Assembly (NCBI GenBank): GCA_050115035.1
Contig: JASFRG010000001.1
Span: forward strand, 24,932-88,931
Reading direction: 5' to 3'
Length of the DNA: 64,000 nt
From: Anaerolineales bacterium
GTDB lineage: Bacteria > Chloroflexota > Anaerolineae > Anaerolineales > Villigracilaceae
Part shown: positions 7,429-63,584 of the stretch, one piece after another
Position numbering within the stretch: position 1 is the stretch's first letter
Layout of the letters: every line of letters begins with the position of its first letter
Notes under the pieces: model-generated
The model's database searches: none
Told to the model about the DNA's origin: nothing
The model's input: the letters and a program-made list of their open reading frames with translations, nothing else
Program-made: the position numbers and the translations under genes

Positions 7429-7494
7429 CGAATTATAGACAATATTATACAGCACGAGTCTATAGGATTGTGAATGGTACAATTGCTCCGTTTT

Positions 7495-9752: not shown

Positions 9753-9812
9753 TTTCGTTGATAGATGCCAAGCAGTTTGCCAAAATTCCTGAGAAAGCGT
9801 AAACTATAGCCC

Positions 9813-12411: not shown

Positions 12412-12614
12412 TCTCAAGACTGCTCGACTGGTTATCTGAGTTTTTAGCCCACCGCAAAGGCTTACTGCCACTGCTTGGAATCGTGTTGGTCATCATCAAC
12501 TTTATCCTGCAATTCTTTTTCCCGCTCGACCACTGGCTGACAGGCACTAATCTGTTATTACACCTGGGGGTCGTCATCGCGATCTTCGGCATGATGCTAG
12601 CCTGGGCACTATAA
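12408..12614 (+). CDS. Small two-TM membrane protein
   Basis: 68 aa and hydrophobic. ATGA start-stop overlap with hflX suggests translational coupling. Confidence 0.5.
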   Translation: MISRLLDWLSEFLAHRKGLLPLLGIVLVIINFILQFFFPLDHWLTGTNLLLHLGVVIAIFGMMLAWAL

Positions 12615-12645
12615 TTTTACAAACTTTCGCAAGAATGACGGGTAA

Positions 12646-13707: not shown

Positions 13708-14073
13708 TTTCGGAAGCCACAAGCGGCTTCCTCCACCTGTCTGCATTTTAATGCCATTTTCTATGTATGTCATTGTTCCGGCTTCGGCACGAATATCTTC
13801 GCCATAATTCAATTCTACATACACCAACTGTAAATCATCCCCGAATATCTGATAGTCGATCCATTTGCTATTTTCATCTCCTTCATTAAGATCTATTTTA
13901 AAAAATAAATATGGGGAAGAAAAAATAGCAGATTTCTGCTAATTCAATTTGGATATTCTTTATGTTTTTAGTGTATGATTATGGTATCGACAAAGAGCAA
14001 ACGCGGGTTGCTCACCATATTTCCGGGCTTTTTTTATGCATTTTTGGAAATCCTGGATAAGAGCATTTGAATA

Positions 14074-43783: not shown

Positions 43784-44227
43784 ATGGAATCAACAGAAGT
43801 CTTGAGTGAACCGATCTACCCATACGAATTCACGATTCCAGACGAAGCTGTCGATGAGAACGGACATGTCAATAACGTTATGTACGTGCAGTGGATGCAG
43901 GATGCAGCCGTGAGACATTACGAAGCCATGGGCGGCAGACAGATCACGATAGACATTGGCGCCACCTGGGTGGTACGTTCACACATGGTCGAATATCTGC
44001 GTCCGGCTTTCGCAGGTGAGCGCATCAAAGTGCTGACCTGGGTGGTTAATATGCGCCGGGTACGCTCCCTGCGGCGCTACCAGTTTATCCGCATGGAAGA
44101 TGAGCAATTGTTGGTGCGCGGTGAAACGGACTGGGTCTTCGTAGATATGGAGAAAGGTTCTCCGCGGGCTATTCCTCCTGAAGTTTCGAGTCTATTTAAG
44201 TTGCTACCGGATGAAGTCAAAACATAA
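43784..44227 (+). CDS. Hotdog-fold acyl-CoA thioesterase (YbgC/4HBT-like)
   Basis: DENGHVNNVMY active-site context; about 147 aa. Confidence 0.75.
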   Translation: MESTEVLSEPIYPYEFTIPDEAVDENGHVNNVMYVQWMQDAAVRHYEAMGGRQITIDIGATWVVRSHMVEYLRPAFAGERIKVLTWVVNMRRVRSLRRYQFIRMEDEQLLVRGETDWVFVDMEKGSPRAIPPEVSSLFKLLPDEVKT

Positions 44228-44306
44228 ATTTTGTGATATGCTAAACCCAGCATTGAGCGGAGTTGCCCCCCTTATTTGCAGTTTCTTTTCAAGAAATACG
44301 TAAGGT

Positions 44307-44540
44307 TTACAAAAGAAAGACAGGCCCAAAATAGCGACAGAAAACATCATCTTCTGGCTGGTTCTTGATCCTATCACGTTCGGACTGGGCTCCATCGGGG
44401 GTTACATCCTCTTTCGCGAATTCGTCGAACATGAGCGGCTTCCCCACCGCGATGAATGGGTTCCGCTTTTCAAACAGCATTGGTTTGCTATCCTGGCGCT
44501 TGGGATTTCGATAAGTTATTTTTTCTATCGCCTGATCCAT
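44307..44540 (-). CDS. Possible small hypothetical protein
   Basis: 77-aa ORF in an otherwise empty 320-nt gap. No motif and no clear RBS. Confidence 0.25.
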   Translation of the reverse strand: MDQAIEKITYRNPKRQDSKPMLFEKRNPFIAVGKPLMFDEFAKEDVTPDGAQSERDRIKNQPEDDVFCRYFGPVFLL

Positions 44541-44640
44541 GTTTTGAATGGGGGCTAAATTTCACCAGAATGCGAAGGACTTCTTTGCGCAAGGAAGTCC
44601 TTTTCTTTTTTCAGTTCAATGCTTCGACTATAATCCGGGC

Positions 44641-45630
44641 ATGAAATTACGGTTGCTGGCAGTGCTTGTGTTTCTTATTTCTCTCACAGCATGCGTCCCT
44701 GGAATAAAACTTTCGAAAACAAATACTGCAGCCCCACCCGCAACAGATATCATTTCTACACAACAATACAACGTCCATCAGAAAATATCCCTGGTTAATA
44801 CAGGAGACCATAAACCGGGTAAGCAAAATTTATGGGTGGCGCTTATTCGTGACCTGTCACCCTATCAGGAAGTCATTTCAAGGTCGATCTCCCCCAGCGG
44901 ATATGTGCTCTCAAAGGATGAATACGGGAACGAATATGCCGAGTTCGATCTATCCGAGCATGCGCCCGGAACAACCATCAGCATAGAAATTGATTATCAG
45001 GTTTCCGTCAATGAACTAACCTATGATTTGTCAAACTGTGAGGGAGAAACACCGGACGAATTCACGCAGCCCGAGCTTCACATAGAATCTGCGAACCCGC
45101 AGATTGTGTCACTCGCCGAAGAGCTATCAAAGGGCAAGAGCACTGCCTGCGAGCAGGTCCGAGCGTTCTATGATTATGCCGGTGACGAATTGATTTATAC
45201 GTACAACCGTACGGCCTGGGGGGCGCAGGCCACCTTCGGCCTGATGGGCGCAGACTGCACGGAGTACGCCTCCCTGGTGGCTGCTCTCAGTCGCGCCGAG
45301 GGGATCCCGGCCAGATATTATGAAGGATTGCTGTATCTTGAAGAAACTAGTGCTGACAAAGACAAAGCCATCGCTCAGACCGAACATGCCTGGCTGGATG
45401 TCTATCTGCCAGGGATTGGCTGGACCGCCTTAGACCCCACCATGGGACGGGGGGCGGTCAACCGAGAAACGTACTTTGCACACTACACACCCGATCACAT
45501 CATCGTAACGACCGGGCGAAATCCCTCCACCTTGCGTGGGGCCAGCTACTGGTCGCATCTGTACTGGCCGGGGAACCTGACCAACATCAGTGTCTCGGAA
45601 GCCAGTTGGGACATCCAGCCGGTTCAATAG
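44641..45630 (+). CDS. Transglutaminase-like cysteine-protease-fold lipoprotein
   Basis: Lipobox LTAC after MKLRLLAVLVFLISL; Cys-His-Asp context GADCTEYA...HAWLDVY...LDP. Confidence 0.8.
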   Translation: MKLRLLAVLVFLISLTACVPGIKLSKTNTAAPPATDIISTQQYNVHQKISLVNTGDHKPGKQNLWVALIRDLSPYQEVISRSISPSGYVLSKDEYGNEYAEFDLSEHAPGTTISIEIDYQVSVNELTYDLSNCEGETPDEFTQPELHIESANPQIVSLAEELSKGKSTACEQVRAFYDYAGDELIYTYNRTAWGAQATFGLMGADCTEYASLVAALSRAEGIPARYYEGLLYLEETSADKDKAIAQTEHAWLDVYLPGIGWTALDPTMGRGAVNRETYFAHYTPDHIIVTTGRNPSTLRGASYWSHLYWPGNLTNISVSEASWDIQPVQ

Positions 45631-45815
45631 GAGTCCAACGTTTCCCAACGTTAGCGCCAAAGACAGAGACTTTGGACTCCTTCATCTTTCAGGTAAATCG
45701 ATCAAGTGCTTGATATTTACCCCGTTTTCCCATACACTAAGGGTAGCAATTTTATAGACTGTTTCTTGTCCCGGGGGAACCATTTGCCGTTCAGGGTATG
45801 AATTGGAGAAAAAAT

Positions 45816-48800
45816 ATGAAAACTGAAGATACAAAAACCATAAAAGTTCTCGGGCAGAGCAATGAAGCCTTGAAAAGAGTCAACTTTGGCGGTGAACTCA
45901 AGAACTTCACGGTATCCCACGCGGTGCAGTTCGCGTCAGACCGTGCTGCAGCCACCCCGCAAGTGATAAAAGACTTGGGGGATGATGATATTGTCGAGCT
46001 GATCTTCGAGGACAATATCCATCGTTGGGTCACGGTGGCGGAACTCGAAGAGCAGTTCAAATATCAAATCTCGCGCGGATCAGAGCCGGGCGTCATCGAG
46101 ATCCCCAGCCGATTGCCTTCGGGAGATACCTCGCGCGGGGCCACCTCCTGGGTCTTGAACGGGCTGCGTGTGCTTAAATTCGATCCTGTGGAGAAAACCG
46201 TAGAAGGGGTGATCAAAAACTACGACAAGAAGAAACTCATGCCAGAACCGGGACTTTACCGCTTCGCAGAGAAGCTCGACAAGCGCGGTGAGAAACTCGA
46301 TAATCCAAAGATCTCACCCACGAAACCGGTCCTGCTGTTCATCCATGGCACGTTCTCGAGCATTGAGAACGGGTTCGGCAGCTTGCGCCCGGAGGTCTGG
46401 GCCAGGCTGCAGGGCAAATACGAGCAGCAAATCTTCGGCTTCAACCACCGCACGCTGTCCGAGAGCCCGATCCAGAACACATTGGAACTGGTAGAAAAAC
46501 TTCCCGAAGGCGCAAAGCTGGACATAGTTACGCACTCACGCGGCGGCCTGATCGGTGAATTACTGTGCCGCAGCGGCAGAACCGGCGGACCGGCGTTGTT
46601 TGACGAGGATGATGAAACCCTGATGGCAGAAGACAAAGCTGCTTTGGTCAAACTCTCCAGGCTGCTGCAGGAAAAGAAGATCAAAGTGGAGCGCTTTGTG
46701 CGTGTGGCCTGCCCGGCACGCGGGACCACGCTGGCCTCCAAACGCGTCGACCGCTGGCTGGAAGTCATCGTCAACGTGGTCGAGAAAGTCCTGCCACCCG
46801 GCCCGGGCAATATCTTCGGCGTGCTGGCCGACCTGCTGCTTGAAATCAAAAAACAAAGTTCCAATCCGGAAGCCATCCCCGGCCTGGCCGCAATGGATCC
46901 CGCATCGAACTTCATCAGGATGATCAACCGCGAAGACGTGAAAGTCGAGGCCGACCTGACCGTGATCGCAGGAGATATCGAAAAGAACAATCTTACTGGC
47001 CGCCTGGCGGTCTTCTTTACCGACCTGTTCTATTCTGACGAAAACGACCTGGTCGTCAACACACCGGCCATGTATGGCGGCCCTGCACGCACAGACGGGC
47101 GTTATTTCTTCGACAAAGGCGCGAACGTCAACCACTTCAACTACTTCTCTAACCAGAAGACAGCGGAAAAGCTACAGGATGCGTTGTTGGAAGAACTTGG
47201 TACCTTGGGCGCACAAGGTTTCAGACCGATCAAGGAAGCTTACGTCAGAGTTGTCCCGGATGTGGAGATCACGGCGCGTTCCTACCAGAAACGCTCCAAC
47301 ATTTCGCAGCCGGTCGTTTATATCCTTCCGGGGATCATGGGGACACACCTGGCCGAGCGCGGGAACCGCATCTGGCTGGACGCGCTCGATCTGGCCCTGG
47401 GGAAGATGGTCAACCTGCAAATCACAAACAAGGATGTTCAACCGCAAGCGCTGATCGCCTTCGCCTACGCGGACCTGGTCGAGTATTTGAGCGCCACCCA
47501 TGAGGTCATCCCCTTCCCCTACGACTGGCGTCTTTCGGTCCTGGATGAAGCCAACCGTCTGGGGGACGAGATCGAGAAAAAGCTCGAAGAGACCGAGCAG
47601 CCCATTCGGATCATTGCGCATTCTATGGGCGGGTTGGTGACGCGCGCCATGCTGGGGTTGAGGCCAGACCTGTGGAAGGAGATGCGTAAGCGCGACGGAG
47701 CGCGTTTCATCATGCTGGGGACGCCCAACGGCGGCTCCTACCAGATCCCGCGTTTGATCCTGGGCCAGGAAAAGACCCTGAGAATGCTGGCGACAGTCGA
47801 CATCAGGAATTCGGCCCGCGACCTGCTGGAAGTTATTACACGCTTCCCCGGTGTGCTGGGTCTGCTGCCCATCGAAGAAGAGCCCTGGAATTTCCTGGTG
47901 GCCGGCACCTGGGACAAATTTCCGAACACGGGCAGGAACAAATGGGTCAAACCGCTGCAAAAAGACCTGGATAAAGCTAAAGAACTGCACGACCTGCTGA
48001 AGGCAGAAAAGAGCATGATCGCTGAGGATGATCCCATCCTGTATGTGGCCGGATATTCGCGCGGCGCGCCGGTGGCTGTAGATATCGATAAAACCCAGGG
48101 GGTGCTCATTCGGGGGACGAACCAGGGAGACGGCACCGTGCCATGGGATTCCGGCATCCTGCCTGAATTAAAAGACGGCCGCACCTATTATCTGAACGCC
48201 TCGCACGGCGACCTGGCCAATACCAAAGAGTCTTTCCCGGCCATTTACGAACTGCTGACCAAAGGCAGCACGGAACGCCTGCAGAAAATACCGCCCAAGT
48301 ATGACCGCGGCCAGGAAGAGAATTACATCCTCCGGGATGAAGACGTGGAGATCTATCCGACGCAGATCGACATCGAAACGACCATGCTTGGGGCTGCTCC
48401 CGTCAAATACGAAGCGCCGCCCGAAAAGCCTGTGCGCGTATCGGTGGCGCACGGGAACCTTTCGTTCTGCAGCGACCCGGTCGCCGTCGGTCATTACGAA
48501 AACGACGGCCTGTACAGCGCAGAAAGAGCCTTGAACCATCACCTGAACGGACGGCTGAATGCCCGTCACGTGCTTGGGCTGTATCCCGGCCCGGAAGGCA
48601 CGGTAGAGGTGGTTTTGAACGAAATCGGCGAAAAACCGGGCGGCGCTGTCATCGTCGGGCTTGGACAGGCAGGCGAACTCTCACCGTTCAAGTTGACGCA
48701 AGCCTTTGCGATGGCCCTGCGGGAGTACGGAATCAAGGCCGTCGAAAGCGGAAGGGTGGGCGATGATGGAGAGATCAGAATCTCGACCCTGCTGGTGGGC

Positions 48801-51191
48801 ACAGGCGGCATGGGACTGACAGTCACCAACTCGGTCGACGCCATCCTGAACGGCGTGCTGCAAGCCAACAAGAGCTTCACCCAGCTTATGGAGGTCAAGC
48901 AGGCGCAAGAACACCTGGACTATAACGTGCGTATCGCTGAGGTGCGGTTCATCGAGTTATTCAAGGACCAGGCCATCCTGGCAGCCAGAGCCCTGGCGCC
49001 TTTCATGGACAAAGAGGAATTTGCGATCAATCCTTTGCTGCAAACCATGCGCGGCGGGTGGAATCGTGTCGCATATGATGAGCCGGCCGGATGGTGGAAC
49101 CGAATCTACATCCGGGCCAGCGAGGACAATACGCTGACCTTTTCCGTGCCCACCGACCGGGCCCGTGCGGAAGAGTCGCGCCTGGGCGTGCAGCGCAATA
49201 ACGTGGACAGCCTGATCGCGCAATCGGTCAGGAACCCCAACTGGGATGAGAACCTGGCAACAGCCATGTTCGAGTTGATGATCCCCAACCGGCTCAAGGG
49301 CACTTTCAAAGACATGAACGACGTGCTGTTCGTGGTGGACAAAGAGTCAGCCAGCTATCCCTGGGAACTGCTCTACGACCGCCGCATGGGCGGCGATAAA
49401 CCCATCGTGGCGCAGGTTGGTATGATCCGGCAATTCATCACCAGGACGTTCCGGGAAAACGTAGTGGACGTCAAGAACAAGAACGTGCTGGTGGTCGGCA
49501 ACCCAGCGGATACTCCGGCAGGCTTTGCCGATCTGCCGGGCGCGGAACAGGAAGCCGTGCTGGTGGCTGCCAAGTTCAAGGAGAACGGCTACGAGGTAGC
49601 ACCTTCTATCCACGCCGACTCGAGCGCCATCATGGTCGACCTGTTCTCGAAAGATTACCGCGTCCTGCACCTGGCCGGACATGGCGTCTATAACTACCGC
49701 TATCAGGACGTCACTGAAGATGAACCCAGAACGGTTACCGGTATGGTGCTGGGAAACGGGGTCTTCCTGACCGCCAACGAGATCCAGAACAAGATGAATA
49801 TCCCCGAGCTGGTCTTCATCAATTGCTGTCATCTGGGGAAGCTGTCTGACCAGGGCGAAGAAGTTGTGACCGGCCGGAACGAGTTCAACAAATTTGCAGC
49901 CAGCCTGTCTAAGGAGTTGATCGAAATGGGCGTCAAGGCGGTAGTAGCAGCCGGCTGGGCGGTCGATGACGCTGCGGCTCTGTCGTTCGCGGAGATCTTC
50001 TACGACCATCTGCTCAGGGGCTATCAATTCGGAGACGCGATCAAAGCCGCGCGCGCTGAGATTTACGAACAACACGGAGACCGCACCAACACCTGGGCCG
50101 CGTACCAATGCTACGGGGATCCAGCCTATCGTCTGGTGGTGAAATCGGGAGCGGGTCGAAACTGGAAAGAAAGATTTGTGGACATTGAGGAAGCCATCGT
50201 CAAGATCGACCAGCTCTACGAGCGCGCCAAAACCGCTTCGGCGCTGGGCATCAAGAGCCTCAAGGACGAGCTTACCAGCCTGTTGAAAGGCATCGAAGAA
50301 GATAACCCCGGCTGGCTGGATAACCCCAGGCTATTGGAAGTCTTTGGGCAGGCCTACGCCGAAGTGTACCTGTTTGGGGATGCGGTCAAGTTCTATGACC
50401 GGGCGATCGTCAGCAGCAATTCGTCCGCTTCGATCAAATCCATCGAGCAGGCGGCCAACTGTCATATCCGCCTGGCCGTGCAGGCTTTCGAGAACGACCC
50501 CGGCCTGTACACCGAATCCAAGAAAAAGATCGAAAAATATATCGAAACCCTGACCCGCCTTATGGCCACTCTAGGGGAAACAACGGAACGTCTGTCGATG
50601 GTGGGCAGCGGCTACAAACGCCTGGCGCTGATCTCCAGCAGCAAGCCATCCAATGTGTGTAACGAAGCGCTGGAGCAGATGGAAAAGTATTATCGTCAGG
50701 CCTGGACGCTGACGAAAGAAAGAGCGAAAGGCAACAAGCCTCTCGACCCTTACCCCCTGATCAATGCGCTGGTGGCCCGTATCGCGTTTTTGGTGCGCTC
50801 AGGCGATGAAAAACAGGCCGCCGAGGAACGTAAAGAAATACTGAGAGTAGAAAAAGGGGTGGCCCAACACCTGGCTCAGGCTCTGGAAATGGCCAAACCC
50901 GAAAGCTTCTGGGCTGCAGTTGGGGTGGCAGATACCAAACTGCTGGATGCGCTGATCGAATATCTGTCGCTCAGGACGAAACGGGTGCCCGATAGGGTGC
51001 ACAAGGAGTTGGTGGAAGATTACCGCACAGCCTGGAAACAATACGGCTCCACACGTGAACTCAACTCGGTCATCGAACACTACACCTTCCTGGTGGACGT
51101 TATGAAGGATTTCGATGAGGAAAATAACCTGTGCGGCGTGCTCGAGAACATCCACACCGATCTACGCGCGATGTCGGAGGAGGTGGATTGA
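45816..51191 (+). CDS. Giant multidomain protein: N-terminal domain, alpha/beta hydrolase, LCAT-like lipase/acyltransferase, helical middle, CHAT caspase-like protease, TPR-like tail
   Basis: HGTFSS (46344) and THSRGG (46530). YDWRLS (47520), AHSMGG (47616), GDGTVPWDS, SHGDL. CHAT dyad HLAGHG (49668) and FINCCHLG (49815). ATG 45816 lies 7 nt after GGAG; the ORF is open from 45798. Confidence 0.85.
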   Translation: MKTEDTKTIKVLGQSNEALKRVNFGGELKNFTVSHAVQFASDRAAATPQVIKDLGDDDIVELIFEDNIHRWVTVAELEEQFKYQISRGSEPGVIEIPSRLPSGDTSRGATSWVLNGLRVLKFDPVEKTVEGVIKNYDKKKLMPEPGLYRFAEKLDKRGEKLDNPKISPTKPVLLFIHGTFSSIENGFGSLRPEVWARLQGKYEQQIFGFNHRTLSESPIQNTLELVEKLPEGAKLDIVTHSRGGLIGELLCRSGRTGGPALFDEDDETLMAEDKAALVKLSRLLQEKKIKVERFVRVACPARGTTLASKRVDRWLEVIVNVVEKVLPPGPGNIFGVLADLLLEIKKQSSNPEAIPGLAAMDPASNFIRMINREDVKVEADLTVIAGDIEKNNLTGRLAVFFTDLFYSDENDLVVNTPAMYGGPARTDGRYFFDKGANVNHFNYFSNQKTAEKLQDALLEELGTLGAQGFRPIKEAYVRVVPDVEITARSYQKRSNISQPVVYILPGIMGTHLAERGNRIWLDALDLALGKMVNLQITNKDVQPQALIAFAYADLVEYLSATHEVIPFPYDWRLSVLDEANRLGDEIEKKLEETEQPIRIIAHSMGGLVTRAMLGLRPDLWKEMRKRDGARFIMLGTPNGGSYQIPRLILGQEKTLRMLATVDIRNSARDLLEVITRFPGVLGLLPIEEEPWNFLVAGTWDKFPNTGRNKWVKPLQKDLDKAKELHDLLKAEKSMIAEDDPILYVAGYSRGAPVAVDIDKTQGVLIRGTNQGDGTVPWDSGILPELKDGRTYYLNASHGDLANTKESFPAIYELLTKGSTERLQKIPPKYDRGQEENYILRDEDVEIYPTQIDIETTMLGAAPVKYEAPPEKPVRVSVAHGNLSFCSDPVAVGHYENDGLYSAERALNHHLNGRLNARHVLGLYPGPEGTVEVVLNEIGEKPGGAVIVGLGQAGELSPFKLTQAFAMALREYGIKAVESGRVGDDGEIRISTLLVGTGGMGLTVTNSVDAILNGVLQANKSFTQLMEVKQAQEHLDYNVRIAEVRFIELFKDQAILAARALAPFMDKEEFAINPLLQTMRGGWNRVAYDEPAGWWNRIYIRASEDNTLTFSVPTDRARAEESRLGVQRNNVDSLIAQSVRNPNWDENLATAMFELMIPNRLKGTFKDMNDVLFVVDKESASYPWELLYDRRMGGDKPIVAQVGMIRQFITRTFRENVVDVKNKNVLVVGNPADTPAGFADLPGAEQEAVLVAAKFKENGYEVAPSIHADSSAIMVDLFSKDYRVLHLAGHGVYNYRYQDVTEDEPRTVTGMVLGNGVFLTANEIQNKMNIPELVFINCCHLGKLSDQGEEVVTGRNEFNKFAASLSKELIEMGVKAVVAAGWAVDDAAALSFAEIFYDHLLRGYQFGDAIKAARAEIYEQHGDRTNTWAAYQCYGDPAYRLVVKSGAGRNWKERFVDIEEAIVKIDQLYERAKTASALGIKSLKDELTSLLKGIEEDNPGWLDNPRLLEVFGQAYAEVYLFGDAVKFYDRAIVSSNSSASIKSIEQAANCHIRLAVQAFENDPGLYTESKKKIEKYIETLTRLMATLGETTERLSMVGSGYKRLALISSSKPSNVCNEALEQMEKYYRQAWTLTKERAKGNKPLDPYPLINALVARIAFLVRSGDEKQAAEERKEILRVEKGVAQHLAQALEMAKPESFWAAVGVADTKLLDALIEYLSLRTKRVPDRVHKELVEDYRTAWKQYGSTRELNSVIEHYTFLVDVMKDFDEENNLCGVLENIHTDLRAMSEEVD

Positions 51192-51252: not shown

Positions 51253-51292
51253 AAAGCTCCCGGTGGATTTGCTCTGCCGGGAGCTTATTTTT
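51253..51292 (+). terminator. Rho-independent terminator of the giant ORF
   Basis: AAAGCTCCCGG-loop-CCGGGAGCTT followed by ATTTTT. Confidence 0.8.
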
Positions 51293-51335
51293 CGAGATTA
51301 TCTCACATCTCATAAAAACTTTAAGGTAAAAGTGA

Positions 51336-51364
51336 TTGACTTTCAACCTTAAAATCTGTATACT
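51336..51364 (+). promoter_or_regulatory. Near-consensus sigma-70-type promoter
   Basis: TTGACT (51336-41), 17-nt spacer, TATACT (51359-64). Confidence 0.65.
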
Positions 51365-51368
51365 GAAA

Positions 51369-51668
51369 GTGCAGGGAATTCCTAGAAATTGGAACCATCT
51401 CTGTCGTACGGGCCGAGAGTTTGGAAAGGGTTCAGAAGCGCAAGTAGAAGAGCCCCTGAAAAGTTCAAAAGCCAACTTTTCTCTCACAGAGTACCAGTGA
51501 CGAGTAAGTCCAATCACAAGAAAGGGCTGAAAGTAAATGGGAAAATGAAGAGAAATCTTGAAGCAAACTGTGTAACACAAGCCTTACATTATCTGTAGGC
51601 TGAAGGCACGGTTAGCAAAGAGAGCGACAGGGTGAAAAGGTTACTGGGGATCCCTGCACTTTTTATTT
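51369..51668 (+). ncRNA. Candidate ~300-nt structured RNA of unknown class
   Basis: Starts about 7 nt after the -10 box. 5' GUGCAGGGAAUUCC pairs with GGGGAUCCCUGCAC (51646-59), which is followed by UUUUUAUUU. CUCUGUCG (51399-406) pairs with CGACAGGG (51625-32). Internal hairpins at 51458-81 and 51581-600. No convincing ORF. Confidence 0.55.
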
Positions 51669-51694
51669 AAGGGAGGCTGCATTCTGCCAAAAGT

Positions 51695-56098: not shown

Positions 56099-56665
56099 AT
56101 GGCAAAAATCCAAAAGAATTCGATCTTAGGGGGGATCAGAGGCAGCATTGGGGACATGGTTATCCGGCAAATGCCGGATGGCAGCGTACGGGTGAGCGCC
56201 AAATCCCTCAAAAAGCGTAAATTCAACCAGGCGCAGAGGGACAACCAGGATCGATTCAAGTTGGCGCAGGCGTACGCGCGCGAGGCCAAGAACAACCCTG
56301 TCTACCTCGAGCTTGCCCAGGAGACGGGCAGGAGCGTGTACCATCTGGCGCTCTCGGACGGCTTGATCCCGCCGGTCATCCACGCGATCGAGCGCACGGA
56401 CGGACGGGTCTGCGTGATAGCCAGCGACAACTTCATGGTAGCAAGGATCTGGGTGCGCATCCTGGACGGGGAGGAGAACCCCCTGGAAGAGGGGCATGCG
56501 GCGCAACCGGACCCGCTCCACGATCCTGAGCGCTGGGAGTACACCTCCCACGCCGAGGGCACGGTCGAAGCCACCGCCTGGGACCTAGCCGGAAACCGGA
56601 CAACTCAATTCCTTGTCAATTGCGAGGCCGCCCGGGAACAAGCGCATGCCGCTCGATTCAATTGA
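56099..56665 (+). CDS. Hypothetical protein
   Basis: 188 aa. RBS CAGGAGAAAG upstream. No motif recognised. Confidence 0.55.
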   Translation: MAKIQKNSILGGIRGSIGDMVIRQMPDGSVRVSAKSLKKRKFNQAQRDNQDRFKLAQAYAREAKNNPVYLELAQETGRSVYHLALSDGLIPPVIHAIERTDGRVCVIASDNFMVARIWVRILDGEENPLEEGHAAQPDPLHDPERWEYTSHAEGTVEATAWDLAGNRTTQFLVNCEAAREQAHAARFN

Positions 56666-56828
56666 AGGTCACATTGCCTGGGTAGTTTACGGAAAGAAAG
56701 AAGGCCAGCCAGTATTCCGCCGGATCACACCTATTGCGGGCATCATGGTTTGGGCTGGGGTATGTAAAACGGAGCCGGGTGAGTTGATTTTGAGAGAAAC
56801 AAAGCGCACATCTAAAGGTATACTATGA
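56646..56828 (+). CDS. Possible small hypothetical protein
   Basis: 60 aa from ATG 56646, overlapping the upstream stop. Weak. Confidence 0.25.
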   Translation: MPLDSIEGHIAWVVYGKKEGQPVFRRITPIAGIMVWAGVCKTEPGELILRETKRTSKGIL

Positions 56829-56866
56829 GTAACTGCTACTTTGATATTCACTAATGGGACCTTGCT

Positions 56867-57136
56867 ATGCCCTCTACCCCACTAACTGACACATCCCCTG
56901 CTGCGGAGCGCCTGCAAATCGAACTGATGCGACAAGCTCCTACCTGGCGCAAAGCCTATCTGGTCGGGCAGATGACCGAATCAATACGCTTGCTAACTTA
57001 CACTGGGCTTCGCCAACGCCATCCCCAGGCCACACCGGATCAACTACGAAGGATGTTGGCAGAATTGTGGCTGGGACCGGAATTGGCAGCTCGTGTATAT
57101 GGCCCGCTACCGGAGGAAAACGCTCTTGCTGCCTGA
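56867..57136 (+). CDS. Small helical protein paired with the downstream nucleotidyltransferase
   Basis: 89 aa. Its 3' end overlaps the next ORF by 44 nt. Confidence 0.5.
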
Positions 57137-57695
57137 ACCGATCGCAGTGACCTTGCAAGTTGCAGATGTCCTGGAAACGCTAGGTGTGCCTTATTTCATC
57201 GGTGGCTCGCTTGCCAGTGCCATTCATGGCATCAGCCGCGCCACAATGGATGTGGATATCGTTGCAGATTTACAGGCAAAGCATGTACAACTCTTAGTCA
57301 GGTTACTTGCAGACGCATTTTTCATAGACGATGAATCGCTTCGCAAGGCCGTTCGCGAACATGGTAGTTGCAATTTCATTCACCGGGATACGATGTTCAA
57401 GGTGGACATATTCGTCCGAAAAACGAGGCCCTTCGACCAATCTCAACTTGACCGCCGAGAACGACAATCCCTGGCCACCGAGCCGGAGCGTTTTGCATAT
57501 GTCGCTTCTGCTGAAGATATGATTCTGGCTAAATTGGAATGGTATCGTCTCGGAGGTGAAGTTTCCGAGCGACAGTGGCGCGATGTCCAGAATATTCTGA
57601 AAGTACAGGGAGATCGTCTTGATGAAGTTTATTTGCGAAAATGGGCCGCTCAATTGGGGGTCATAGACTTGCTTGAGCGCGCTCTGGCTGAATGA
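57093..57695 (+). CDS. Minimal nucleotidyltransferase (MNT/pol-beta-fold) family protein
   Basis: [21 protein letters not shown] fits G[GS]-x(9-13)-DxD. GTG start as listed; the exact start is uncertain. Confidence 0.65.
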
Positions 57696-57702
57696 ACGCT
57701 AC

Positions 57703-58020
57703 ATGCTAAAAATGGACACCTGGTATACCAAAGAACTGGGCGATGGGATCATGGCCAGCACCCCTGCGGAAGAAATCAGACAGGCTTTTCAGCGCGCTGT
57801 TCAATCTGAAGGAGCGCTGCCGGAGATGGCTGTTTTTACGAGACTTGAATCGGAAGGCCGGCTGCACTGCGAAAGGATCGTCTACTTTTCTCCGGCCGCC
57901 AGGGAGCTCGCCCTGGCTTTCGAAGCCCAGCCGTGCGCAAAACCGACGCGGGCAGGGTTGGGTCTGCTGGCAGGCCCGCAGGAGTCCTGGGCGCTGCTCT
58001 TCCCGGAAAGCGCCGGATAG
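57703..58020 (+). CDS. Hypothetical protein
   Basis: 105 aa from ATG 57703 (MLKMDTWYTKELGDG). No motif recognised. Confidence 0.5.
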   Translation: MLKMDTWYTKELGDGIMASTPAEEIRQAFQRAVQSEGALPEMAVFTRLESEGRLHCERIVYFSPAARELALAFEAQPCAKPTRAGLGLLAGPQESWALLFPESAG

Positions 58021-58280
58021 AGCTCCCTGAAGGATATTTGAAGAAAGATTGAACCGGGACCTCACATAGGCGCAGCACTGTTTTCCCTTCCGCTTGACCC
58101 GACAATGAAAAAGCCTATAATCTAAAATAAAGAACCGTGATAAGTGCCCGACCAACGTGATATTGGTGGGTGAGGTCATCTTTTGTCTGCGGTACCTTAC
58201 CCCATCATAAATATGGTTTCCGGGTACCAGCTAGAAAATGTGATCGGGGGCTGTCATGTTTTTTGATTGGAGCAGCCACA

Positions 58281-59210
58281 ATGAAGAAGGAAGAGGCGCT
58301 TGATTTATTGAGAAGGGGCGAATCGAGCATTTGGAACGAGTATCGAAAAAGACACCCTAACTGGGCCCCGAATTTCGAAGGCGAAGATCTCTCCGATCTC
58401 GATTTCCACCCCATAAATAAAGAACCATTCGACCTGTCCCATGCAAATTTAGTCGCCGCGAAACTCCCCTCCATCGATAAGCTGCTTCCATTTGGGGACC
58501 AATTCAGGCCCGGAAATAATTCTATTCTTATCAATGCCATCGCACCGACCTCCGCTGAAGATGCAGAAAGTATTCAGGATATATTTCAGCATATTTCAAA
58601 AGACATGCTTGAAGGCGGACCCCTTTCAGGCGCGTTGATCAGTCTCTCCACCACCATCGAAGGCGGTACCAACCTGGCTCTGCTGGTGAAATTCGGGGCA
58701 GTGTTCGTAACCGAAGATGAACTCAAGAGACGCAGAGCATCCGTCCCGCATAAGGTGTTCATCAGTTACGCCTGGGCGGATGAGCAGGTGGTTCTTGCCA
58801 TCGAGCAATGGCTTCGTTTGCGCGGTCTGGACACGACCATCGACAAGAGAGACTTTTTTGCAGGCGCAAAAATCCGGAACGAGATCATGCGGAATATGAG
58901 CGCTGCGGACGTGATCCTTATTTTTCACTCCGAACGCTCTAAAGATAAGCCCTGGATCGATTTCGAACGTGAATTTGCAGCCGACCTCGAAATGGATGCG
59001 AAGCAGGCCGGCCAGGAACCTCCTCGGATCATTTTTGTCGTCATCGACGGCACCCGCCTGCCGGATGCGACAGAAAGAAACCGGCTGGCCATTATGGCCA
59101 AAGGCAAGCGGTTCGAAGAAGTCTGTCAGGAAATCTATGACAATATCCTGCTCATTCCACGGACGAGCAGCGACATCGATCTGGAGCAATTCAAGGATTA
59201 TAAATTTTAG
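58281..59210 (+). CDS. TIR-domain protein with a pentapeptide-repeat-like N-terminal region
   Basis: ATG 58281 lies 8 nt after GGAG. N-terminus LLRRGESSIWNEYRKRHPNWAPNFEGEDLSDLDF...SHANLVAAKL. C-terminal KVFISYAWADEQ...DVILIFHSERS...IIFVVIDG is TIR-like. Confidence 0.75.
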   Translation: MKKEEALDLLRRGESSIWNEYRKRHPNWAPNFEGEDLSDLDFHPINKEPFDLSHANLVAAKLPSIDKLLPFGDQFRPGNNSILINAIAPTSAEDAESIQDIFQHISKDMLEGGPLSGALISLSTTIEGGTNLALLVKFGAVFVTEDELKRRRASVPHKVFISYAWADEQVVLAIEQWLRLRGLDTTIDKRDFFAGAKIRNEIMRNMSAADVILIFHSERSKDKPWIDFEREFAADLEMDAKQAGQEPPRIIFVVIDGTRLPDATERNRLAIMAKGKRFEEVCQEIYDNILLIPRTSSDIDLEQFKDYKF

Positions 59211-59383
59211 AGACTGGCAGATCATCCCCTGATCCCGTTAAGGGAACGTATAGACATGTCAGTCCTGGGAGATTGATCCCGGAACTCGAAGCACCAGCAG
59301 CGAGGCTGTTGTGCAGATACATATCGTGAAGGTCTGTTTGTGTGGGAGATGTGGTAGAGTCAGGACAGCGAGAGGAATAATCC

Positions 59384-59911
59384 ATGTCCGCTGAAAATAA
59401 TGTACTTGTTAGACATGCCAGAGAGCAAGATATCCCCACAGTTCTGGAAATCGATGCGGAGGCTTTCTCCCCTTACGGAATCGCAGAGAAGCCAGAAACG
59501 TTTCAACAACGACTGACAGCTTTCCCAGATGGTTTCATTATCCTGGTCACAAATCATGAAATTGCAGCCTTTGGTTGTTCGGAAAAATGGTCCATTGAGC
59601 GCGAGCCAGGCCTGGACGAGGACCCTTCTGTGACTCACCAAGAGGATGGCAGAGTGTTCTGCATCACCGCCATGGCTGTCAAAAAGAAGTATCAAGGGCG
59701 AGGCTTTAGCTTGCTCATGCTTGATAAGCTGATTGAGGTTGCCCACAACCATGGTTGCAGGAAAATAATTTTAGAGACATCGCATTCCCAGGAACTGTAT
59801 CAAAAACGAGGCTTCAAGACGGATCAAAACCGCACGGAAGGCGAGGTTTCGTTGGATGTAATGTCTCTTGAAATTGAATCCTATGGCAGCCAGGCGAAAA
59901 CAGAGGCGTAA
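59384..59911 (+). CDS. GNAT-family N-acetyltransferase
   Basis: ITAMAVKKKYQGRGFSLLMLDKLIE acetyl-CoA-binding motif. Confidence 0.8.
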   Translation: MSAENNVLVRHAREQDIPTVLEIDAEAFSPYGIAEKPETFQQRLTAFPDGFIILVTNHEIAAFGCSEKWSIEREPGLDEDPSVTHQEDGRVFCITAMAVKKKYQGRGFSLLMLDKLIEVAHNHGCRKIILETSHSQELYQKRGFKTDQNRTEGEVSLDVMSLEIESYGSQAKTEA

Positions 59912-59944
59912 AGCGGTCATCCCTGCGCAGGGAATTTCGAAGGC

Positions 59945-60346
59945 TTATTTCCCAAACACATCCTTCCATAACAATATTCCACCAATCCCCATAACGACAA
60001 TTGCCAAGCTGTATGTGATCAGCAGTCCAATCGCGATCCCCCATTGCAAACTGCCTGGCATCACATCTCCCAAAACCATCAGGACAACGACCGAACCAGC
60101 GGCCAGGCCGCAGGCCCAGAACATGATCCTGCGCCGTAGTCTGGCGCGCAGCGCTCCCCAGATGAGGAGGGCGCCGCCCGCGAAGGCCACCAGCCCCAGC
60201 TCCACGGGCATGAGATAGTCAAAGCGGTAGATGCCGTCCGTGACCAGGGAGAATAAACCCAGGAGCACCGGCGCAAGAACTGGAAACCACACCAAAACCG
60301 TCCCAAGGACGGCAAGAATTTTCGAGAGTGTATCTTTCTTCCCCAC
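59945..60346 (-). CDS. Four-TM membrane protein
   Basis: 133 aa. GTG start 6 nt after GAAGGAGG. Confidence 0.6.
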   Translation of the reverse strand: MGKKDTLSKILAVLGTVLVWFPVLAPVLLGLFSLVTDGIYRFDYLMPVELGLVAFAGGALLIWGALRARLRRRIMFWACGLAAGSVVVLMVLGDVMPGSLQWGIAIGLLITYSLAIVVMGIGGILLWKDVFGK

Positions 60347-60647: not shown

Positions 60648-63026
60648 TTACTTACTCCGACCACTAAAGCGGGCCAGTTCTTCAGCCATATCCGCCAGGC
60701 GCTGGTTGGCGCGGTAGAAAACGCTCTCCGGGGCAAAACCGGGTTCATCTTGTATCCCAGCCGGGAGGCCGGTCAGTACCTCAATCCCTTCCGCGATAGT
60801 ATCCACCAACCAGATGTGGAACTTCTCCGCTTCTACCGCCGCGATGATCTCCTGTTTGAGCATCAGGTTGGAGCGGTTGCTGGCCGGGATCATGACGCCC
60901 TGTTCGCCGGTCAGCCCTTTGGCCTTGCAGACCGCGTAAAAGCCTTCGATCTTCTCGTTCACACCCCCGATGGCCTGCACTTCGCCCTTCTGGTCCACCG
61001 AACCGGTCACGGCGATGCCCTGTTTGATTGGCAGGCCTGAGAGTGCTGACAGGATGGCATACAACTCCGTGCTGGAGGCGCTGTCGCCGTCCACGCCGCC
61101 GTAGTTCTGTTCGAAGACCAGGTGCGCGTTCAGACTGAGCGGCTTATCCTGCGCAAATACCCCTGCCAGATAGCCCGCCAGGATGAGCACACCCTTGGTG
61201 TGGACCGGTCCGCTCATCTCGGCTTCCCGTTCCACATTGACCACGCCGCTCTCCCCCAACCCGATACTGGCGGTAATGCGGCTGGGCTGCCCGAAAGAAA
61301 TATCACCCAGTTGCAGCACCGACAACCCGTTGACCTGTCCCAGCGCTTCGCCAGTCACCTCGATCTTGATCACGTCCCTGGCGATTAGCTCCTGGATACG
61401 TTCCTGGATCAGCGCCGAGCGGTAGTAGCGTTCGTCGATGGCTTTTACTATGTGAACCGCTGTCACCAATTCAGTCTTTTCCTGCCGGGCATAGTAGCTG
61501 GCTTCGCGGATCACATCCGCAATCTCACCAAAGCGCGTGGATAATTTCTCCTGGTCCTCTGCCAGACGCGAACCATGCTCGACCACGCGCGCCAAGCCTG
61601 AGGGGTCGAGATGCGTCAGGTCTTCCGTCGCACACAGGGCGCCTACAAAGCTGGCGTACTCTTGAATGTGCGCATCCGTGCGTTCCATCTGTGAGTCGAA
61701 ATCAGCTTTTACCTTGAAAAGTTCGATGAAATGTTCGTCGTAGGCCAGCAGCAACTGGTAGATTTCCCCCCGGCCAACCAGGACCACCTTGGCATCCAAA
61801 GGGACGGGCTCCGGGCGCAGGCTCTTGGTAGTAAAGACAGGCTGTTCGATAGGCTGCTCGATGGCGATCTCGCTGTTCCGCAGGCAGCGTTTCAAACTCT
61901 CCCAGGTGAAGGGGTTGCGGATCACATCTTCCGCAGGCAGGACGAGATAGCCGCCGTTGGCTTTGTGCAGCGAGCCGCCGCGGATCAGCGTGAAATCGGT
62001 CACCAATGCGCCCATAAAGGCCTCCTGCTCGATGCGCCCGAACAGGTTGCTATAGGTGGGGTTCATTTCGACAACCACCGGCGCGCCTTGTAATTTGTTG
62101 TTATCCACCAGGATATTGACCTGGTATTTGTCGGTCGGCGTGCGCTTCGCTCCCGGGAGGCGCGGCTCATTTTCTTCGGCCTGCGGCTTGAACTGGGGAA
62201 TATTCTCAAGGATATCCTTTTCAATCGACTTCAAGAAATCCAGGATATCGGACTGGGCTTTGTATTTTTCGAGCAAGCGCTCCAGCGCGTGCTGCAGCAC
62301 AAACTGGACCACCTGACGGTCGAGCTTTTCCAGTGCTTCCTGGGCGCTGTTATCCAGGCTGCGCGTCTGGCGTAAGGCGTTTTCGACCTCGTTCTGGATC
62401 TTTTCCTGCGTAGCTTTCATCCCTTCGCGCTCAGCCTCAGACAGCCCCAGGAAATCCGCTTCGCTCATCGGTTTCCCTTCTTTGACCGGAACGGGGATAA
62501 CGCCCATGGGCGTGGCCTGCAAGCCGAATCCGTTCTTCCGGGCGAACGCGCCCACGTTTTCGATCAGCTTCTCCTTCTGCTCCTGGAAAGAACTCAGCGC
62601 GTTCTCGCGCTCGCTGGCATATTGTTCGCTCTCAAAGGCAGCCCGGATCTCCTGCGTGATGGATTTGATAAAGCCTTCGGTATCCTTTTGGAACTCGTGC
62701 GCCTGCCCGGCAGGCAAGCGGATGGCGTGCGGCCGGTAGTTATCCTCAAAATTATTGACGTAGCACCAATCATCGGGTGCCGGTTTGGCGCTGGCGATTT
62801 CGTCTAGGAAACGTTCGATGGCGGTCGTACGTCCGGTGCCAGGGCGGCCAGCCACGAAGATATTAAAGCCCTTATCCTGGATGTCCAACCCGAAACGCAT
62901 GGCGCGTACGGCCCGGTCCTGTCCGATAATGGTCCCCTTTGCGCTGACCTCCGCGCTGCTGCTGTATTTCATCGTCTGCGGGTCACAGGGAATGTGAAGC
63001 TCGCTCGCAGATAGTTTGTGGATCAT
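60648..63026 (-). CDS. Lon-related ATP-dependent protease (AAA+ plus S16 protease domain)
   Basis: Walker A GRPGTGRT. C-terminal GPVHTKGV...GGVDGDSASSTELYAILS...GSVDQKGEVQAIGG is a Lon Ser-Lys protease pattern. Confidence 0.85.
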   Translation of the reverse strand: MIHKLSASELHIPCDPQTMKYSSSAEVSAKGTIIGQDRAVRAMRFGLDIQDKGFNIFVAGRPGTGRTTAIERFLDEIASAKPAPDDWCYVNNFEDNYRPHAIRLPAGQAHEFQKDTEGFIKSITQEIRAAFESEQYASERENALSSFQEQKEKLIENVGAFARKNGFGLQATPMGVIPVPVKEGKPMSEADFLGLSEAEREGMKATQEKIQNEVENALRQTRSLDNSAQEALEKLDRQVVQFVLQHALERLLEKYKAQSDILDFLKSIEKDILENIPQFKPQAEENEPRLPGAKRTPTDKYQVNILVDNNKLQGAPVVVEMNPTYSNLFGRIEQEAFMGALVTDFTLIRGGSLHKANGGYLVLPAEDVIRNPFTWESLKRCLRNSEIAIEQPIEQPVFTTKSLRPEPVPLDAKVVLVGRGEIYQLLLAYDEHFIELFKVKADFDSQMERTDAHIQEYASFVGALCATEDLTHLDPSGLARVVEHGSRLAEDQEKLSTRFGEIADVIREASYYARQEKTELVTAVHIVKAIDERYYRSALIQERIQELIARDVIKIEVTGEALGQVNGLSVLQLGDISFGQPSRITASIGLGESGVVNVEREAEMSGPVHTKGVLILAGYLAGVFAQDKPLSLNAHLVFEQNYGGVDGDSASSTELYAILSALSGLPIKQGIAVTGSVDQKGEVQAIGGVNEKIEGFYAVCKAKGLTGEQGVMIPASNRSNLMLKQEIIAAVEAEKFHIWLVDTIAEGIEVLTGLPAGIQDEPGFAPESVFYRANQRLADMAEELARFSGRSK

Positions 63027-63584
63027 GTTACTCCTCTCCCGGGGTGTGGTCCCTTACCTACCCGTCAATCTCTTTAAATTTATTGTAGAGCGGATGGAGC
63101 GGCAATTCAAGTACATTTAAGGCATTCTTAAAGAGAACGATGCTATCTATTAAAGTGAGTCATGGATAAGGAAAAATGACAGCTCTTATTTCTTTATCAC
63201 TACCCATATCGGTAAGAGCAAAAACGATCAGAACGGGCTTTTAGTCCCCTGTATTAGTAGCAAATAAGAATTAGGCGATTCCCTTAAAACTCACCTGTCC
63301 CCCCTCAGAATATGATATAAGAAAGTCAGCTCTGCTGTGTTCGTGATGTTGCGTCTCGGTTTTGTGCCAACACTCTCATATAGGGCTCTGATCTCACAGA
63401 AATAACGCGATAGGCCTGAGCCAAGGCGGCGTTTCTGGGTAGGGGCCCACCCTGCGAAGGCAGGTTCAAAACTTTGCAGCACACGGCATCAGCGGGCCCC
63501 TTTGCAAGGGAGCAGGTCTGGCAGGAATTCCTGTCAGACCTTTGATTTAAGGGGGAACAGGAAATACGGAATTGTTATTTCTCG

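Follow-up and report, generated by a model that had tools for sequence, protein, structure and literature searches.

Protease-gated death effectors are emerging as one of the main logics of bacterial immunity. Caspase-superfamily domains in bacterial conflict systems are consistently paired with an alpha/beta-hydrolase (Kaur et al. 2020, PMC7159879). In the LcCaspase/LcHydrolase pair of Lysobacter capsici, the caspase-like protease activates the paired hydrolase zymogen at two conserved R|G sites, and only the cut form of the hydrolase kills cells (Evans et al. 2025 preprint, PMC12642450). Strict specificity for arginine at P1 has been described for a bacterial caspase-like defence protease (Rousset et al., bioRxiv 10.1101/2024.10.24.620036). 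The hydrolase branch of this logic has been studied only as two-gene pairs. Here we describe a single gene that packs a predicted sensor, a CHAT caspase-like protease and two lipase-type effectors into one polypeptide of 1,791 residues, and that appears in none of the defence catalogues we queried. It lies at positions 45816-51191 (+) of a 64,000-nucleotide stretch of DNA, hereafter the window, from an Anaerolineales bacterium of the Chloroflexota (NCBI GenBank assembly GCA_050115035.1, contig JASFRG010000001.1, positions 24,932 to 88,931 of the forward strand).

The analysis shows the domain composition and fold assignments of the protein, its conserved catalytic residues and Arg-Gly loops, the modular variants of the family and the conflict-type neighbourhoods of relatives. 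Judging from sequence, structure models and analogy with the published pairs, we consider it somewhat probable that the product is a cytoplasmic single-chain sensor-protease-effector, that is, a protease-licensed lipase death effector acting in a conflict or programmed-cell-death system. A preliminary description of the window had proposed a proteolytically licensed suicide or defence effector, and the present results support that proposal, which fits the published caspase/alpha-beta-hydrolase pairs (PMC7159879; PMC12642450). The same description did not recognise the architecture as a known system. This holds for the fused form, but the novelty is smaller than it seemed: every domain belongs to an existing Pfam family, the protease/alpha-beta-hydrolase logic is already known (Kaur 2020; the two-gene pair of Evans 2025), and relatives are labelled 'CHAT domain-containing protein' or 'DUF7379 domain-containing protein' in databases. 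In the literature searched we found no description of the cis-fused two-hydrolase/macro-fold/TPR-S architecture or of its breadth, none of the three conserved Arg-Gly loops or of the clade-specific C14, M15, clostripain, TIR and TPR-S operons, and no mention of DUF7379.

Domain architecture and conserved sites

A six-frame scan reveals a lone uninterrupted open reading frame (ORF) at 45798-51191 (+; 1,797 codons). The ATG at 45816 is preferred to a start at 45798, because GGAG lies 9-13 nucleotides 5' of it and the N-termini of homologues match there, starting at the equivalent MKTIKVLG. The product is therefore taken to be 1,791 residues long, numbered from this ATG, and its translation contains all the motifs quoted in the preliminary description. 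The gene, its domains and the candidate cleavage sites are as follows, with percentages referring to 169 non-identical family members:

45816-51191, + strand: whole gene, 1,791 codons plus stop (ORF list and translation)
45816-46190, + strand: beta-rich N-terminal domain, residues 1-125, with two conserved S-R-G loops (AlphaFold2 secondary structure)
46071-46079, + strand: S86-R87-G88, candidate cleavage site 1 (R 93%, next G 69%)
46131-46139, + strand: S106-R107-G108, candidate cleavage site 2 (R 99%, next G 98%)
46233-47240, + strand: alpha/beta-hydrolase module 1 (DUF7379), residues about 140-475 (Pfam PF24096, 1.2e-41)
47304-48281, + strand: alpha/beta-hydrolase module 2 (LCAT/LPLA2-like), residues about 497-822 (Pfam PF02450 LCAT, 9.7e-13)
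48282-48428, + strand: variable linker, residues 823-871, holding R831-G832 (alignment, DSSP coil)
48306-48311, + strand: R831-G832, candidate cleavage site 3, at the junction of lipases and protease core (R 97%; next G 73%, A 16%, S 7%)
48429-49001, + strand: macro-fold domain, residues about 872-1062, resembling the leucyl aminopeptidase N-terminal domain (Foldseek)
49002-49253, + strand: beta/helical connector, residues 1063-1146, leading into CHAT (AlphaFold2 secondary structure)
49254-50120, + strand: CHAT caspase-like protease, residues 1147-1435 (Pfam PF12770, 1.9e-32, profile positions 3-289 of 289)
50178-51188, + strand: all-helical C-terminal TPR-S sensor-type domain, residues about 1455-1791 (Pfam PF20308, 2.7e-9)

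Against the whole protein, Pfam profiles exceed their cut-offs (in brackets) for DUF7379 with 143.2 bits (33), CHAT with 113.3 (24), LCAT with 48.5 (21), TPR-S with 37.9 (27.6) and DUF676 with 23.4 (20.3). PGAP1 scores 22.4 bits, under its cut-off of 24.3. AlphaFold2 was run on two halves of the protein with 62-sequence family alignments, yielding a mean predicted local distance difference test (pLDDT) of about 86 and, for the N-terminal half, a predicted TM-score (pTM) of 0.85; folds were matched by Foldseek searches of these halves against the PDB. As read from profiles and models, the order of domains is beta-rich N-domain, DUF7379, LCAT/LPLA2-like module, linker, macro-fold domain, connector, CHAT and TPR-S. 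The four modules named in the preliminary description are all present, but it overlooked the N-domain, the macro-fold domain and the connector. No signal peptide or transmembrane segment was found in the 1,791-residue protein (maximum 19-residue hydropathy 1.25).

Module 1 carries the motifs HGTFSS (177-182) and THSRGG (239-244), with the oxyanion residues H177-G178 and a triad of S241 (46536-46538), D411 (47046-47048) and H440 (47133-47135). Many bacterial lipases match the N-terminal half in Foldseek, whose output does not say which module aligns. In module 2, the motifs YDWRLS (569-574), AHSMGG (601-606), GDGTVPWDS (771-779) and SHGDL (796-800) surround S603 (47622-47624), D772 (48129-48131), H797 (48204-48206) and D570-W-R572. 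A PDB profile search finds LPLA2 (4x90) at 1.5e-6, and Foldseek finds LPLA2 and LCAT at 4e-9 to 2e-6, the best match being 4x92 (4e-9, TM(target) 0.55). Module 2 shares with LPLA2 and LCAT (4x90, 5txf) the fold, the Ser-Asp-His triad and the family motifs, but it belongs to a larger, multidomain protein of the bacterial cytoplasm, and the sequences are only about 17-21% identical. By this similarity it may act on lipids, perhaps phospholipids. It thus offers a lead to the chemical target, here presumably membrane phospholipids, a question not settled by the work on the published hydrolase.

The domain following the linker matches TTHA0132, macroH2A1.1, PARP9 macro 2, MACROD2 and the PepA N-domain in Foldseek (2dx6, 1zr3, 9qyh and 6y4y among the entries; probability 1.0, TM(target) 0.6-0.67). 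Its sequence, at residues about 890-970, comes nearest to Pfam Peptidase_M17_N (20.5 bits, under the cut-off of 23.4), and a PDB profile search of the region gives PepA (3jru) at 1e-3. Pfam Macro has no match in the domain, and an hhalign comparison of the family profile with E. coli YmdB returns a probability of 0.6%. We therefore use the label macro-fold only, and do not assign the domain to the Macro family. The connector behind it carries the conserved arginines R1084, R1096, R1115 and R1117.

The protease is recognised by the motifs HLAGHG (1285-1290) and FINCCHLG (1334-1341). Its catalytic dyad would consist of one of H1285 and H1289 (49668-49682) and one of C1337 and C1338 (49824-49829). 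Structural matches include SAVED-CHAT (8tl0), Csx29 (8eex, 7y9x, 7zoq) and gingipain (4ief), with E-values of 7e-7 to 1e-4. SAVED-CHAT, which works with PCaspase in a type III-B CRISPR/CBASS-like system (Steens et al., 8tl0), is the best structural match to the protease core. It has a ligand-sensor domain directly N-terminal of CHAT, as the window protein putatively does, and a PCaspase-like C14 gene lies directly 5' in about 17% of the family loci. The window protein differs in having a macro-fold domain in place of SAVED and fused lipases instead of a second protease, and the window contains neither CRISPR nor CD-NTase genes. Csx29 of the type III-E Craspase (Foldseek probability 1.0) also combines TPR (tetratricopeptide repeats) and CHAT in one protein. 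Its TPR region, however, is N-terminal and docks on Cas7-11, whereas TPR-S of the window protein is C-terminal with no Cas gene nearby, and it cuts Csx30 in trans where the window protein would process itself. Genes for Cas7-11/Csx30 or gasdermins were found neither within about 10 kb on either side nor among the recurrent family neighbours. The gasdermin and type III-E parallels drawn in the preliminary description are analogies only. Since the defining partner genes are absent here, the gene falls outside the Craspase, gasdermin, CBASS and Thoeris systems by their definitions.

The helical tail that had been described as TPR-like is present at residues about 1455-1791 and is specifically TPR-S (Tetratricopeptide Repeats-Sensor), a predicted signal sensor. 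The Pfam match spans residues 1522-1653, the tail is all helix in the model with pLDDT around 90, and Foldseek returns TPR proteins.

Conservation was counted over the 169 family members, and a smaller set of 62 relatives agrees. H177, S241, D411 and H440 of module 1 are near-invariant, with the triad kept in 168-169 members; the module 2 triad S603, D772 and H797 is kept in 165-168, H1285, H1289 and C1338 of CHAT in all 169, and C1337 in 168. This near-complete retention indicates that all three enzymes are under selection to remain catalytic. The two lipase-type triads and the CHAT His/Cys dyad of the preliminary description are thereby backed by conservation as well as by profile searches and structure prediction. 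Mean pairwise identity is 0.47-0.52 in the enzymatic cores and the macro-fold domain, 0.31 in the N-terminal domain and TPR-S, and 0.22-0.31 in the linkers.

We listed every arginine conserved in at least 80% of the 169 members. R87, R107 and R831 were singled out because they are located in flexible, otherwise variable sequence. Both S-R-G motifs fall in loops with pLDDT <50, at residues 85-88 and 104-110 (two of the four such segments in the N-terminal half). The linker with R831 is gap-rich (0.31 identity), is assigned as coil by DSSP and separates module 2 from the macro-fold domain; natural short forms of the protein begin just downstream of this position. Sequence, models and the L. capsici analogy suggest that the protein may cleave itself at R87, R107 and R831. 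The beta-rich N-terminal domain is a putative pro- or inhibitory region; in the fetched loci, a hidden Markov model (HMM) built from it recognised family members alone.

The comparison with LcCaspase/LcHydrolase (PMC12642450) is closest in logic. In both cases a clan-CD cysteine protease is coupled genetically to a lipase-like alpha/beta-hydrolase, a sensor is fused to the protease, the predicted outcome is cell death, and two conserved Arg-Gly sites lie near the hydrolase N-terminus, those of the window protein being candidates only. Unlike the Lysobacter pair, the window protein unites all parts in cis in one 1,791-residue chain, has two hydrolases with a third candidate site in the linker, and carries TPR-S as its predicted sensor, with a macro-fold domain in addition.

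Modular variants, distribution and gene neighbourhoods

A word-indexed search returned at least 3,943 family clusters at 90% identity, and an exhaustive HMMER search with the Macro-CHAT-TPR-S half returned at least 1,553 clusters at 50% identity (E <= 1e-30). In GTDB, represented by a single genome for each species, at least 595 species carry relatives, at only 33-40% identity. The best 120 matches of the word-indexed search are almost all 1,750-1,860 residues long with an identical Pfam set, and TPR-S is present in nearly all full-length members. The closest named relatives are metagenome-assembled genomes of Anaerolineales. Hosts include members of the Chloroflexota, Desulfobacterota, Nitrospirota, Acidobacteriota, Alpha-, Beta- and Gammaproteobacteria, Bacteroidota and Verrucomicrobiota, and also of the Planctomycetota, Bacillota, Methylomirabilota, Gemmatimonadota and Actinomycetota. 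The distribution is patchy yet broad, covering about a dozen phyla at low identity, and relatives occur in 20 plasmid records.

Several variants depart from the full-length architecture. The Macro-CHAT-TPR-S core occurs without the hydrolases (L031, L039, L050; about 10% of the best 150 representatives), with hydrolase 1 only (L079), or with an added C-terminal TIR domain (proteins P0092 and P0119). Conversely, the LCAT-like module is found fused to a trypsin-like peptidase (L087), adjoining a serine protease (L091), or fused to CHAT beside SIR2 and NucA genes (L092). Such variety would be expected if the protease core drives hydrolase effectors that can be swapped for one another.

To survey the neighbourhoods, the two immediate neighbours of each of 79 family loci were collected, giving 140 proteins; the figures are raw counts without normalisation to the genome background, and ORFs of the fetched loci were called mechanically as the longest ORFs, with errors possible in high-GC genomes. 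Pfam assigns 15 of the 140 neighbours to Peptidase_C14, 7 to TIR_2, 7 to Peptidase_M15_3, 4 to TPR-S, 4 to astacin and 3 to clostripain. The caspase model of PADLOC is found in 13, and TIR effectors, SAVED-TIR, Cas6, MzaA and a CBASS phospholipase are also matched. The C14 gene usually comes directly before the large gene in the same orientation, and the start of the M15 gene overlaps the large gene's stop codon. A look at the neighbourhoods of homologues had been suggested in the preliminary description; caspase, TIR, TPR-S, SIR2, STAND and restriction-modification (R-M) genes do lie beside relatives, some of which are on plasmids. The copy on a 76-kb mobilizable plasmid of Azotobacter chroococcum sits in a defence island, among type I R-M, Fic, PD-(D/E)XK nuclease, recombinase and insertion sequence genes. 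In L031, a locus from Bacillota, the short form has a MACPF-like gene on one side and a Tle1-like phospholipase gene on the other; the short form of L096 stands beside TIR-FGE-sulfatase, SIR2 and nSTAND1 genes.

Housekeeping synteny conserved across the phylum was not observed. Three close relatives, with proteins 80-88% identical, share the left flank of the window gene, while the right flank differs in each of the four genomes, so that a variable region begins next to the gene. No common synteny remains in more distant Anaerolineales.

Some clades show recurrent arrangements of their own. Betaproteobacterial loci L060, L072, L073 and L081 (about 6100-15100) contain, in order, a C14 caspase, the large protein, M15_3 and an unannotated protein of about 520 residues. 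In other clades the 5' gene encodes clostripain (for example L019) or a 680-residue TPR-S protein (for example L044). An adenylosuccinate-synthetase-like gene lies convergent and immediately 3' of the family member in the unrelated loci L094 (7118-15100) and L002 (15556-16944). In L094, one of the close relatives of the window gene, the genes after this PurA-like one encode Nuc_deoxyri_tr2, a transposase of the ISL3 type and a TCAD9/phosphatase protein, and the group suggests a conflict island centred on nucleotides.

Proposed mechanism and competing explanations

In the mechanism that we propose, the DUF7379 and LCAT/LPLA2-like hydrolases would be held inactive in the intact chain. Sensing of a trigger would fall to the variable TPR-S at the C-terminus, perhaps with the help of the macro-fold domain beside CHAT, and CHAT would be switched on, probably through oligomerisation as in SAVED-CHAT. 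The protease would then cut its own chain at S-R87|G and S-R107|G in the N-terminal domain and at R831|G in the linker, removing the inhibitory N-terminal piece and freeing a double-lipase fragment of about 80 kDa (residues 108-831). The freed fragment would degrade membrane phospholipids, leading to cell death or arrest, so that infection is aborted. The observations above are our basis for inferring the zymogen status, self-cleavage at the three sites, lipids as substrates, the kind of trigger and a defence phenotype. The idea of a protease-licensed lipid effector is reinforced by the conserved Arg-Gly loops and by the MACPF-like and Tle1-like flanks of L031. Cultured hosts and plasmid-borne copies are available, and the three Arg-Gly sites, two serines and one cysteine give concrete predictions. 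Tractable homologues include the plasmid copy of Azotobacter chroococcum HR1 (WP_198868265.1) and those of Paracoccus yeei, Thiothrix lacustris DSM 21227 and Nitrobacter vulgaris DSM 10236.

Several points weigh against this mechanism. The window gene is solitary among housekeeping-type genes, the majority of neighbours at the 79 loci are ordinary genes, and the family is mainly a stand-alone gene. No relatives were found in the phage (INPHARED) and viral-contig (IMG/VR) collections, and no model of PADLOC-DB v2 matched the protein, the best being SAVED_CHAT with E = 0.024 and 11.6 bits. The listing of conserved arginines contains no site between the two hydrolases, and the conserved Arg-Gly loops could instead bind a ligand or a partner. 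CHAT proteases are not necessarily Arg-specific; Csx29 cuts Csx30 after a hydrophobic residue. LcHydrolase, at about 300 residues, is likened to the window hydrolases by its described features, not by its sequence, and what points to lipids as the substrates is similarity of fold and family.

A tentative alternative retains the same effector and places it in Thoeris-like signalling: upon infection, a TIR protein, whether fused, encoded next door or encoded elsewhere in the genome, would make an ADP-ribose-derived signal that binds TPR-S, the macro-fold domain or both and thereby activates CHAT. TIR_2 accounts for 7 of the 140 immediate neighbours, TIR genes lie within three genes of the family member in 9 of the 79 loci, and both P0092 and P0119 carry their TIR domain as a C-terminal fusion. 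A TIR neighbour is seen, for example, in Nitrospira sp. MA-1, and a TIR fusion in Geobacter. The TIR-FGE-sulfatase gene of L096 is two genes away from the short form, and the window itself holds a TIR_2 protein (58170-59210) with weak bSEFIR and ThsB matches. Published Thoeris systems resemble this scheme in their Arg-specific caspase-like effector and their Macro and TPR receptors: the caspase-like protease ThsE is the N7-cADPR-activated effector of type IV (cADPR, cyclic ADP-ribose), a Macro domain senses His-ADPR in type II, and in type VIII the TPR domain of ThsI has been proposed as the receptor that perceives cADPR (bioRxiv 10.64898/2025.12.03.692087), an indirect pointer to the putative ligand sensing by TPR-S. 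According to the same preprint, Aravind and colleagues had predicted that the TPR of ThsI joins TIR signalling. About 90% of the family loci, however, have no nearby TIR gene, and that of the window lies 7 kb off with unrelated genes between and is absent from the syntenic locus L001. The macro-fold domain lacks sequence likeness to an ADP-ribose-binding macro domain (hhalign, YmdB) and resembles the PepA N-domain, which is not known as an ADP-ribose binder; the TPR of ThsI is at most a putative Pfam TPR-S. The described Thoeris types have no lipase payload, save for predicted phospholipase effectors, and they differ further in that no TIR gene adjoins the family member in the window or at most loci, ligand binding by the window protein being putative.

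It is also conceivable, though we think it doubtful, that CHAT works chiefly in trans. It would set off a protease cascade through cleavage of a PCaspase-like C14 partner or break down cellular proteins directly, with the hydrolases controlled by other means than cleavage or acting as independent effectors. SAVED-CHAT activates PCaspase by cleavage (bioRxiv 10.1101/2023.06.23.546230), and a stand-alone Peptidase_C14 gene is found directly 5' on the same strand, often 0-30 nucleotides off, in about 13-15 of the 79 loci; in some clades the operons repeatedly include genes for clostripain and M15 peptidases. Yet the window and most loci have no partner protease, and the conserved flexible Arg-Gly loops of the same chain are more simply explained by processing in cis. 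The cis and trans models are not mutually exclusive. A composite of these schemes, to which we likewise give rather little credence, would make the family an unrecognised, very widespread single-gene immune or cell-death module in which TPR-S, the macro-fold domain or both take up a diffusible, NAD-derived signal from TIR proteins whose genes lie elsewhere in the genome: a trans-acting orphan Thoeris-type effector, autoprocessing at three Arg-Gly sites into a two-headed phospholipase, whose CHAT in some clades also fires a PCaspase-like protease and an M15 cell-wall peptidase. If true, bacteria would possess a caspase cascade whose final step destroys lipids and envelope.

A role outside phage defence, in which filamentous or social bacteria would use the enzyme for regulated cell death, for development or to remodel membrane lipids, appears improbable. 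HetF is a CHAT protein of cyanobacterial cell differentiation, and it is the best NCBIfam match of the window protein (E = 0.0019). This likeness is confined to the CHAT core, with 16.5 bits against a cut-off of 1,200. In four related genomes of Anaerolineae type the gene is retained vertically at one chromosomal site, with housekeeping genes beside it. Filamentous or aggregating environmental bacteria are frequent among the hosts (Anaerolineales, Thiothrix, Nitrospira, Competibacter, Geobacter), and such systems have been linked to multicellular habits (Kaur et al., PMC7159879). The patchy spread over about a dozen phyla at low identity speaks against such a role, as do the plasmid copies, the TIR, caspase, SIR2, STAND and R-M neighbours and the variable sensor domain.

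Finally, we reject a secreted or contact-delivered lipase toxin like the type VI Tle effectors, with CHAT as its maturation protease, as very improbable: lipase and phospholipase folds are typical of Tle-type antibacterial effectors and a Tle1-like gene adjoins the short form of L031, but the protein has neither signal peptide nor transmembrane segment, the window shows neither PAAR, VgrG, Rhs or MIX markers nor a gene arrangement typical of immunity proteins, and secretion genes are not recurrent among the family neighbours.

Flanks of the gene and other features of the window

The following signals flank the gene:

45710-45738, + strand: sigma-70-like promoter candidate TTGATA-17-TACACT (consensus scan, 9 of 12 matches; weak)
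51254-51295, + strand: intrinsic terminator, with a hairpin at 51254-51286 (14-bp stem, 8 G-C pairs, then ATTTTT)

G+C content is 0.57-0.58 within the gene (46001-50000) versus 0.49 just 5' of it (44001-46000), and ranges from 0.40 to 0.58 over the entire window; the AT skew at 46001-50000 is strongly positive (0.13). The genes on the 5' side encode SecD, SecF, YgjP, a TadA-like deaminase, a thioesterase and a transglutaminase-like protein; those on the 3' side are a structured RNA candidate, a phosphoribosyltransferase, a cytidylate-kinase-like protein and an M4 peptidase. The transglutaminase-like (papain-fold) gene lies directly 5' and co-directional in the window (44548-45630, +) and in all three close relatives, L001 (8613-9608), L094 (660-1604) and L095 (2111-3127). 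It was considered as a functional partner, but only one other such immediate neighbour (L062) was found among the 79 loci, and the adjacency is probably a matter of synteny.

The preliminary description had noted that the gene has its own terminator and is followed by an orphan structured RNA; the terminator and a candidate for such an RNA are seen here. The candidate non-coding RNA (51336-51672, +) stands directly 3' of the terminator hairpin, under a promoter TTGACT-17-TATACT. Its structured region of about 300 nucleotides (51370-51668) has pairing 5' and 3' ends and a U-run after them, and folds with a minimum free energy of -98.4 kcal/mol (z = -4.7). No Rfam family matches the candidate at gathering or permissive thresholds. 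The closest relative has a counterpart with about 90% conservation (L095, 8715-9030), and L001 has none. Of the 88 base pairs compared between the window and L095, 9 carry a one-sided change, 1 a compensatory change, and none is broken.

Further downstream, the TIR_2 domain is C-terminal in a 346-residue protein (58170-59210, +), which also has a weak SAVED-TIR match in PADLOC along with those to bSEFIR and ThsB. The surrounding region (56099-60346) consists of small unannotated ORFs and looks like a variable island; L001 has GIY-YIG, transposase, ResIII and methylase genes instead. A tie between this TIR protein and the large protein through TIR signalling would be speculative. A LonC/LonB-like AAA protease of 792 residues is encoded at 60648-63026 (-), with a weak PADLOC match to mad8 (E = 3e-6). 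On the far side of the gene, domains D1-D4 of a group II intron (Rfam, 97 bits) were found at 25078-25457 (-), adjoined by a 511-residue ORF (23539-25074, -) that presumably encodes the intron-encoded protein. A 6S/SsrS RNA is located at 63326-63502 (+), its 58 bits lying above the gathering score.

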